From NCBI RefSeq assembly GCF_037013405.1, contig NZ_CP146064.1, forward strand, positions 240,001-272,000: a stretch of DNA of 32,000 nucleotides, given 5' to 3'. This DNA is from Candidatus Nanosynbacter sp. BB002. GTDB lineage: Bacteria; Patescibacteriota; Saccharimonadia; Saccharimonadales; Saccharimonadaceae. The notes beneath the pieces are model-generated. The model did not search any database and was not told the origin of the DNA. It saw only the letters and a list, made by a program, of their open reading frames with translations. Below are positions 29,697 through 30,812 of this stretch, in pieces; within the stretch, counting starts at the first letter, position 1, and each line of letters begins with the position of its first letter. The translations under genes and the position numbers were made by a program.

Positions 29697-30812
29697 TCAA
29701 TAAGTATAATGTGGACGATCGTTGTGTGCAAGTATTGATCGCACCTCGTCGGTCGTCTTGGTGTGCATCAGCTGGTCGCGCAGTTCCTTGGCGCCGTCGA
29801 AATCGCGGATGTAGATTTTGAAGAAGCGTTTGAGGGTTTCGTAGGGGCGGCCGAGGGTTGATTGGTAGTGGTCAAAGAGGTCAAGGTGGTAATGTAATAG
29901 ACATATAAGTTCCGATTTAACATTACCGCTCCCATCGTCGCCGTTTGTGACGGCACGTAGGTCGCTGGACGCGGGTCCTGCTAGTCGGTCCGCCCCTTCT
30001 TCTGAAAAATCAGAGATTTGTTCAGAAGTGGGTGCTGCCCCACCGACTATCACCCGCTTATCCTCGATCTCTGAAGACACTCTGTCTCTTCGAAAGCAAA
30101 ACGGATTGCTGAAAATTCCCCGTCCGATCATCAGGCCGTTGATGCCGGGGTGTTGGCGGGCAAGTTCTTCACCGTGGGTTCGGTCGCGGACGTCGCCGTT
30201 GATAGTCAAGAGAGTTTGCGGAGCGATTTCATCGCGTAGTTTGACAATGTTGTCGATGAGTTCGTAGTGCGCTGGGACTTTGCTCATCTCCTTTTTGGTG
30301 CGGAGGTGGATGGTTAGGTTGGCGAGGTTTTGCGCCAGTAGTGTGCTCAGCCACTCGCGCCATTCGTCAACGTAGGTGTAGCCGAGCCGTGTTTTGACGC
30401 TAACTGGCAATCCAGCAGTTTTAGCAGCAGCAATGGCGGCGACCGCGACGTCGGGTCGGCGGATCAGCGCTGCGCCCCCGCTTTTGATGGCGGATTTGGC
30501 GGGACAGCCCATGTTGATGTCGATGCCGTCGAAGCCGAGCTTGGCGCAGTGAGTGGCAAATTGCTCCATGTCGCCCGGCTCGCCGCCCCAGATCTGGGCG
30601 ACCAATGGATGTTCGTCGTTAGTTTTGACGAGCCGACCAGCGATGGCTTTGTCGCCAGCGTGTACCCAGCCGGTGGCATTGGCAAACTCCGTGAAAAACA
30701 CGTCGGGCGCGCCCGCCCTTTTCACGACATGGCGAAATACCACGTCAGTGACGGCTTCCATGGGTGCCAAGATGAAAAATGGCTGCGGTAGGTTGTCCCA
30801 AAATGATGTCAT
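29697..30812 (-). CDS. dus: tRNA-dihydrouridine synthase with an insertion after the TIM-barrel core
   Basis: I place the start at ATG 30812 (MTSFWDNLPQPFFILAPMEAVTDVVFRHVV). The motifs are VAQIWGGEP, GIDINMGCPAKSAIKSGGAALI (catalytic Cys) and VSVKTRLG. TGgTAAAAT ends 7 nt upstream. The track's upstream extension crosses a terminator and a tRNA-like element. Confidence 0.88.
   Translation of the reverse strand: MTSFWDNLPQPFFILAPMEAVTDVVFRHVVKRAGAPDVFFTEFANATGWVHAGDKAIAGRLVKTNDEHPLVAQIWGGEPGDMEQFATHCAKLGFDGIDINMGCPAKSAIKSGGAALIRRPDVAVAAIAAAKTAGLPVSVKTRLGYTYVDEWREWLSTLLAQNLANLTIHLRTKKEMSKVPAHYELIDNIVKLRDEIAPQTLLTINGDVRDRTHGEELARQHPGINGLMIGRGIFSNPFCFRRDRVSSEIEDKRVIVGGAAPTSEQISDFSEEGADRLAGPASSDLRAVTNGDDGSGNVKSELICLLHYHLDLFDHYQSTLGRPYETLKRFFKIYIRDFDGAKELRDQLMHTKTTDEVRSILAHNDRPHYTY
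29913..30083 (-). repeat. In-frame ~171-nt palindrome-containing insertion (copy B of a shared element) in dus
   Basis: It encodes about RVSSEIEDKRVIVGGAAPTSEQISDFSEEGADRLAGPASSDLRAVTNGDDGSGNVKS, between GRGIFSNPFCF and the helical domain (ELICLLHYHLDLF). It contains the hairpin CTTCTGAA-AAATC-AGA-GATTT-G-TTCAGAAG (29999-30028). The sense strand shares ATAGTnGG..GGCAG.CAC.CCAC, CAAATCTC and GATTTTTC with 17868-18023. Confidence 0.5.

Follow-up and report, generated by a model that had tools for sequence, protein, structure and literature searches.

The 32,000-nucleotide stretch of DNA analysed here (the window) carries the genes of two housekeeping proteins, an ABC-F ATPase and the tRNA-dihydrouridine synthase Dus, each of which harbours an additional in-frame segment with the potential to fold into a long hairpin. 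Homologs of the two proteins at 70–97% identity were found in metagenome-assembled genomes of Candidatus Saccharibacteria, in oral taxa 348 and 488, and in N. lyticus TM7x, and by this homology the source of the window is a human-oral Saccharibacterium of the Nanosynbacter/TM7 group. An exact-sequence look-up of the window Dus and ABC-F proteins gave no match. We consider it quite probable that the two segments belong to a set of modular hairpin-forming DNA elements of human-oral Saccharibacteria (Nanosynbacter/TM7 G1), which are accommodated in permissive loops and linkers of housekeeping proteins. The element in the ABC-F gene, termed module X, has the following parts.

16674–18458, plus strand: ABC-F ATPase gene, host of module X (translation; two Pfam ABC_tran domains)
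17868–18020, plus strand: in-frame insert of 51 codons, NSRAAVTPPSS...GVAPAA (ortholog comparison)
17873–18024, plus strand: long imperfect palindrome spanning the insert, outer arms TAGGGCGGCAG / CTGCCGCTCCTA (DNA fold)
17890–18006, plus strand: module X core, about 117 nucleotides, terminal inverted arms CACCGTCCTCCGCCAGAG / CTCTGGCGTAGAAGGTG (alignment A2, columns 36–152; nhmmer profile)
17916–17947, plus strand: inner hairpin 1 of X, CGCTCAAATCTCC-ATC-GGAGATTTTTCGCGAGCG (helices 2 and 3 of the consensus structure)
17957–17985, plus strand: inner hairpin 2 of X, TGAAACGTCCGC...GCGAACGTTCCA (helix 5; 4 of 10 pairs changed on both sides)
Example of a peptide spanning an insert junction in ABC-F: SSLKSPPEIFRKR

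The ABC-F insert is located after the Walker A helix of the second nucleotide-binding domain, in a variable loop to which the ABC-F orthologs owe their range of lengths (1632–1956 bp). The insert-free state is represented by the Nanosynbacter TM7-008/-087 clade and by distant Saccharibacteria, in which the loop has 5–9 residues, and elsewhere it reaches up to about 110; the TM7-008/-087 clade lacks the insert in both ABC-F and dus. As DNA, the palindrome was predicted to fold with -37.2 kcal/mol (z = -5.09), and none of 200 dinucleotide shuffles was as stable. The core of X consists of terminal inverted arms of about 17 nucleotides around two inner hairpins, and the tip of hairpin 1 (ATCTCC/GGAGAT) is invariant in all 24 aligned copies. 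[quoted passage not shown] Outer arms specific to the host site lengthen the palindrome further, with GGGCGGCAG/CTGCCGC in ABC-F and GCGGATACATCA/TGATGTATCCGC in leuS. Among the 24 copies, taken from four host genes, 94.4% of the cells in the alignment were paired compared with 34–46% when the partners were slid, and 8 pairs, reflecting few independent events mostly inherited by subfamily, had changed on both sides compared with 0–3 in the slid controls. As judged from this alignment, the stems of X are kept through compensatory changes.

Separately, the same loop holds unrelated inserts in ABC-F orthologs at 65–68% identity from distant environmental Saccharibacteria (L076:10001-11797, L081, and others). 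Their palindromicity ranges from strong (L076, z = -6.8) and moderate (L081, z = -2.9) to none (L079, L082, and L085).

The peptide encoded by the ABC-F insert, searched by HMMER over 1.8 billion representative proteins, matched a fragment of LeuRS and the start of a UPF0102/YraN protein. At the DNA level, the window X matched leuS (L086) and rnhB-yraN (L087) with E ~2e-34. It also matched part of the dus variable segment of another locus (L001; nhmmer, E = 6.5e-18), where its orientation to the host gene is reversed, and L021 gave a further match. Taken together, related genomes show X again, with E = 1e-17 to 1e-34, in dus, leuS, topA, der, and the rnhB-yraN junction. DNA for a census was gathered by scanning metagenomes for the invariant core of X, ATCTCCANNGGAGATNNNNCGYRAGCGTTCGGCTG, which yielded at least 120 stretches and a resulting set of 2.43 Mb, retrieved in fragments of up to 22 kb. 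With the X profile, nhmmer located 160 distinct sites in this set, and all 160 lie in an open frame; the first-pass annotation had suggested checking whether genic copies leave the host frame open. Host genes were assigned by classification against reference proteins, after which Pfam confirmed their identities; single-linkage clustering of host open reading frames (ORFs) and flanks had been dropped, as it lumped all of them together, neighbouring modules being shared. The 148 assigned copies are distributed over ABC-F (63), LeuRS (29), a single ORF of RNase HII and UPF0102 (YraN) (21), TopA (18), Dus (10), and Der/EngA (7). At least 148 of the 160 copies are in frame in six host contexts, and Pfam coordinates place the inserts at domain junctions or loops of their hosts. 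Three copies occur on one 65.6-kb contig, and at least one is intergenic, between convergent genes. This distribution shows X to be a dispersed repeat, with copying having taken it into unrelated genes and a few intergenic sites.

Both orientations of X were found in ABC-F, leuS, topA, and rnhB-yraN, and only one was seen in dus and in der. At the ABC-F site, the element is read either as ...SSARAHSSLKSPSEIFRERSAETSATRERS... (the 'S' frame) or, when reversed, as ...EAVKRSRGADVSAERSRSISSGDASEKSTPAQERGA... (the 'K' frame). There is one fixed frame per orientation, and these two are the only frames used. Of 156 copies, 153 have an open 'S' frame and 105 an open 'K' frame, irrespective of the direction in which the host reads them.

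X is also joined with other modules in composite inserts at hot spots. Module Y is shared by ABC-F, Dus, and TopA, and has both orientations in Dus and in TopA; module W is shared by ABC-F, Der, and TopA, and module Z was seen only in ABC-F. N. lyticus TM7x, for example, carries W+X in ABC-F and Y in dus. Composites of W and X also lie outside recognisable genes (L109:2762-2902, L094, L096, L121, L149, and L164), the L109 copy between two convergent ORFs, and in databases such extragenic copies have been called as short spurious ORFs (P0122, P0126, and P0127, among others). In addition, atpH (ATP synthase delta/OSCP) of relatives has a polymorphic in-frame palindromic insert, module V (...SSNSGMESLTSVEGRSAARASRKDARSEARVPETDGSDRATQHVELPDTEVPSDRIAQ...), in both orientations (L017-L019, L022, L023, L026, L028, L032, and L034); the window atpH (23262-23645) is without it.

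Two of the host genes deserve a separate remark. At L107:3604-4710 (plus strand), as at about 20 further loci like it, a single ORF of 365–382 residues covers RNase HII and UPF0102/YraN with X as the linker, which looks, from its sequence, like an element-mediated gene fusion; L087 has a possible frameshift at this junction. At L161:950-4171 (minus strand), a LeuRS ORF of 1074 residues has a Pfam NUDIX match at residues 444–562 (E = 1.4e-11) beside the editing domain, and its X insert is found at residues 865–913, separate from the NUDIX match.

The pattern of substitutions distinguishes the insert from the protein around it. Among 22 distinct window-type alleles of the ABC-F insert, the variable sites are distributed over the three codon positions as 11:16:11 (nucleotide diversity, pi, of 0.054/0.071/0.042), whereas the flanks of 100 codons on each side show 18:12:60 and 16:5:66, with pi at third positions of 0.16–0.21. 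Because the variable sites are evenly spread in the insert in contrast to the third-position excess in the flanks, the insert peptides are, by this measure, not under purifying selection and evolve at the nucleotide rather than the protein level. Conservation of both window segments at the amino-acid level, which the first-pass annotation had set against its own proposal, was not seen; neither insert has a codon-position bias. At the same time, the inserts are several-fold less diverged than neighbouring synonymous sites, which implies either a constraint on the nucleotide sequence or a recent spread or homogenisation. Same-orientation X cores are 93–96% identical compared with 84–87% for the host flanks in three of the four hosts compared, TopA being the exception. 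As far as these comparisons reach, X is either under nucleotide-level (palindrome) constraint or recently spread, and not under protein-level constraint.

X falls into two subfamilies about 22% apart. X1 comprises the 'S' copies of ABC-F, LeuRS, RnhB-YraN, and the 'S' copies of TopA. X2, which is always in the 'K' orientation, is found in ABC-F, Der, Dus, and TopA, and commonly adjoins Y in ABC-F, Dus, and TopA.

The second window element, termed type A, is located in dus and comprises the following features.

29697–30812, minus strand: dus, tRNA-dihydrouridine synthase gene, host of type A (translation; Pfam Dus at residues 14–252)
29919–30089, minus strand: hypervariable in-frame segment of 57 codons, RDRVSSEIEDKRV...GDDGSGNV (alignment A1 and ortholog alignment)
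29967–30063, minus strand: type A palindrome, about 97 nucleotides, arms GGAT..GCGGGTGATAGTCGGTGG / CCGACTAGCAGGACCCGCGTCC (DNA fold, z = -4.75)
29999–30028, minus strand: central hairpin of type A, CTTCTGAACAAATC-TCT-GATTTTTCAGAAG (holds both 8-mers shared with X)

The first-pass annotation had reported about 57 extra codons between the end of the barrel and the helical domain of Dus. The 57-codon segment is indeed there, between FCFR and KSELI (30089-29919), but insert-free orthologs have 9 residues at this site (RESKTDADNHKEEL; RESKTDADNH), so that the net gain in the window dus is about 48 codons. Among Dus orthologs that are 70–92% identical, the length varies from 323 to 498 residues, and in alignment A1 the entire variation falls between FCFR and K(S/T)ELI, where at least eight alleles of 9 to about 100 residues were counted. 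The AlphaFold model of the window Dus, a weak one with a mean predicted local distance difference test (pLDDT) score of 55 from a shallow alignment, puts the insert after the final strand of the barrel and before the helical domain and leaves residues 229–297 without secondary structure at a pLDDT of about 20–23. The hairpins that the first-pass annotation described in both inserts were borne out by folding: the dus insert forms a long imperfect DNA hairpin, and, as for ABC-F, none of 200 dinucleotide shuffles was as stable. The core of type A reads CTTCTGAACAAATCTCTGATTTTTCAGAAG. Its central hairpin is identical in 5/5 copies and has no other occurrence in the 2.4 Mb, and the close relatives P0001-P0018 carry type A at the protein level; searching proteins for words of the type A peptide gave no candidates. 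Variable sites of type A by codon position are 6:6:7 of 57 compared with 23:7:68 of 100 in the upstream flank, in a comparison of four sequences only, and third-position divergence is 5–6 times below that of the flank. The antisense strand of type A is also open. Because it forms a palindrome, varies in presence between close strains, is free of codon-position bias, and is far less diverged than flanking synonymous sites, type A is, on this sequence evidence, probably another, dus-restricted module of the same phenomenon, though not a demonstrable copy of X.

Around the gene itself, the frame stays open upstream of the dus ATG, through window 30813-30983 (ORF 29697-30983). In many database entries, Dus has been artefactually lengthened at its N-terminus (...EQNRLSPPTPLILNGESEGFSPFCDKITE-M) by translation of this conserved upstream DNA. 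Also upstream, on the minus strand, a GC hairpin (CCCCTCA...TGAGGGG) followed by a T-run resembles a terminator.

Whether the two window inserts are related to each other is a separate question. The first-pass annotation took nucleotide blocks shared between them as a sign of kinship. Every string it quoted is present, the differing outer arms are complementary as described (CGCTC/GAGCG and CTTCTGAA/TTCAGAAG), and the shared 8-mers are read in different frames in ABC-F and dus. The succession of CAAATCTC and then GATTTTTC, a pattern chosen post hoc, occurs at only two places in the window, which are the two inserts. As a sign of kinship, however, these blocks did not withstand comparison with controls. 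Depending on the scoring scheme, 24–102 of 1000 dinucleotide shuffles (2.4–10%) aligned at least as well as the two inserts, 3.9% of random window segments scored equally against the dus insert, and pairs of unrelated modules align with scores of 14–18, equal to or above the type A–X score. Neither nhmmer nor blastn-short matched the ABC-F insert with the dus insert, and gapless repeat finding in the window gave no link between them. From these alignments, the similarity is literally present but statistically marginal (p ~0.02–0.1) and within chance. Accordingly worded, the first-pass annotation's proposal of an element family in this lineage comparable with Rickettsia palindromic elements (RPEs) stands for X, which is dispersed and in frame, whereas the dus insert could not be shown to be a relative of X.

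The strongest rival explanation, to which we would give somewhat less than an even chance, builds on this result: the window inserts might be unrelated, that of dus being a local palindrome produced by inverted duplication or template switch at a hypervariable linker, with coincidental shared 8-mers, and only X, Y, and W being dispersed. In the census, type A was recovered by nhmmer in dus only, at 5 of 5 sites (the window, L011, L018, L103, and L108) and in one orientation, and nested hairpins are present at the dus hot spot, which could arise locally; an A–X similarity no higher than background also speaks for this explanation. Such an origin accounts less readily for the signature that type A has in common with the family (no codon periodicity, low third-position divergence, both strands open, and presence or absence among strains), or for the same dus site accepting the dispersed X and Y in other strains.

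A different mechanism could be imagined for the orientation variants. Intragenic invertons, inverted-repeat-flanked segments flipped in place by a recombinase to give two protein isoforms by phase variation, would predict both orientations in frame at one site, as observed for X (ABC-F, leuS, topA, and rnhB-yraN), Y (dus and topA), and V (atpH), and elements open in both orientations. We regard this explanation as unlikely. Opposite-orientation alleles have flanks that are 94–97% identical, and yet their cores differ by 8–25%, the 'S' and 'K' copies of ABC-F being 22% apart; near-identical flanks around diverged cores argue that the variants arose mostly by replacement with different copies, even of another subfamily, and not by in-place flips. 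The two orientations are closer in leuS and rnhB-yraN (9–12% apart), where flips or re-insertions may have occurred, but inversion leaves the same element in six unrelated genes unexplained, and no invertase was identified in the retrieved fragments. Selection by the host, either for useful flexible linkers or disordered regions or for mRNA hairpins regulating translation or decay, seems to us more improbable still. It would account for inserts that are always in frame, lie at domain junctions and loops, are conserved within clades, and keep their stems by compensatory changes. On the other hand, it is difficult to reconcile with the lack of codon-position bias, with whole clades devoid of inserts in the same essential genes, with the same DNA giving unrelated peptides in two unrelated frames and orientations, and with identical modules in functionally unrelated proteins and in intergenic DNA. 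Inteins and introns were dismissed in view of the small size of the elements, the absence of splicing motifs, and a constraint on frame and stop codons that implies read-through.

The reading we favour is that of a modular set of palindromic elements. The modules would be selfish or at least neutral DNA spreading by copy-and-paste. Candidate routes are a transposition activity that acts on DNA with hairpins or terminal inverted repeats and ectopic gene conversion from one hot spot to another, singly or together. Spread between strains probably also involves homologous recombination, from which the higher conservation of inserts relative to their host genes would follow. To survive, an insertion would have to preserve the host's open frame and land in a tolerant loop, and the elements would then be translated through as an extra, probably disordered peptide. 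In its broadest form, to which we incline by a small margin over its negation, oral Saccharibacteria possess an undescribed modular palindromic system coding both ways, which moves among loops of ABC-F, Dus, LeuRS, TopA, Der, AtpH, and RNase HII-YraN, fuses genes, makes strain-specific isoforms, and is kept more uniform than its host genes by ongoing copying or by recombination between strains.

Several points, in addition to the confinement of type A to dus and its marginal similarity to X, weigh against such a system. Translation of the elements is deduced from frame conservation. The junctions revealed no consistent duplication of a target site: both window elements are flanked by TA, which is absent at leuS and other junctions, for which reason a TA target-site duplication was dropped as a candidate. 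No transposase or excision footprint was identified in the retrieved DNA, in fragments of up to 22 kb. X appears at only about seven host sites, which suggests a low copy number per genome, far below that of RPEs, and is compatible with rare ectopic recombination rather than active transposition. Finally, the census set is biased, as it was composed of ABC-F neighbourhoods and loci retrieved by the X pattern.

Among known systems, the closest analogue is that of the RPEs, and the phenomenon is, by analogy, RPE-like. A review that summarises RPE-1 to RPE-10 (Ogata et al. 2000 Science, 2002 Genome Res) describes them as the outlier among MITE-like insertions that are in frame (PMC10969869). As described there, RPEs have in common with the present elements a length of about 100–150 bp, a palindromic structure, and dispersal in unrelated housekeeping genes and intergenic DNA (PMC10969869); both are also read in a fixed frame after in-frame insertion in a reduced-genome, host-dependent bacterium, at positions presumed compatible with the protein fold (PMC10969869). 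The features by which the RPE-like class may be recognised, namely a palindrome of about 100–150 bp, dispersed copies, an open frame, and conservation at the nucleotide level, are all found in X, and dispersed copies are wanting in type A. The present elements differ in belonging to the phylum Patescibacteria/Saccharibacteria, and we liken them to RPEs by description and not by sequence, without claiming any named RPE family. They also have a much lower apparent copy number (the roughly seven host sites of X), form composite inserts from modules at a few hot spots, occur in frame in both orientations at the same site, and produce hot-spot alleles that are highly polymorphic between close strains.

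Intragenic MITEs such as ERIC, Coxiella QMITE1, and the Anabaena MITEs (PMC10969869) are likewise short, non-autonomous, bounded by terminal inverted arms, able to form stable hairpins, and occasionally fused in frame with ORFs. Unlike MITEs (PMC10969869), the Saccharibacteria elements gave neither a consistent target-site duplication nor a parent insertion sequence, in fragments of up to 22 kb, and as a rule they sit in frame within genes (at least 148 of 160 copies), which is the exception in MITEs. Intragenic invertons (Chanin et al., bioRxiv 10.1101/2023.03.11.532203) resemble them as inverted-repeat-bounded segments within a gene that are in frame either way and give two protein variants, but here the orientations are fixed in different strains and belong to diverged subfamilies, and the same segment recurs in six unrelated genes (compare 10.1101/2023.03.11.532203). 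PARCELs of Mollicutes and other bacteria (PMC2996958) are palindromic coding DNA, open both ways and horizontally distributed; they are, however, tandem intragenic repeats that build surface proteins (PMC2996958) and not single insertions in conserved housekeeping enzymes.

In-frame selfish palindromes have been essentially a Rickettsia curiosity for 25 years. In the searchable literature we found no account of such elements in Saccharibacteria or Patescibacteria, which is not proof of novelty. If our reading is true, nothing RPE-like would have been seen before outside Rickettsiales at this consistency, and an analogous system in Patescibacteria would point to a recurrence of the phenomenon in genomes that are reduced and host-dependent. 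The elements would explain why nearly identical orthologs of Saccharibacteria differ so much in length, differences that affect gene calling, clustering, and the statistics of pangenomes, and they would serve as strain-typing markers for oral TM7. The cultivable TM7x carries elements and could thus be an experimental system for mobilisation, translation, and new protein segments or fusions such as RNase HII-YraN.

Rfam has no family at either window insert or at four loci with unclassified copies, the X and type A cores were not found in viral contigs, and a sliding 120-nucleotide folding scan of the window was not discriminating. A direct repeat of 71 nucleotides, 89% identical, at window 8545-8615 and 9369-9439, lies within adjacent tandem paralogs on the minus strand (8421-9227 and 9224-10084) and is ordinary paralogy. 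Elsewhere, window 18874-21093 (plus strand) encodes a protein of 739 residues that combines RCC1 repeats and a ricin-B lectin domain with a pilin-like signal at the N-terminus. The signal is reflected in a weak N_methyl match in a neighbouring ortholog, and the protein is kept beside the ATP synthase operon in relatives.

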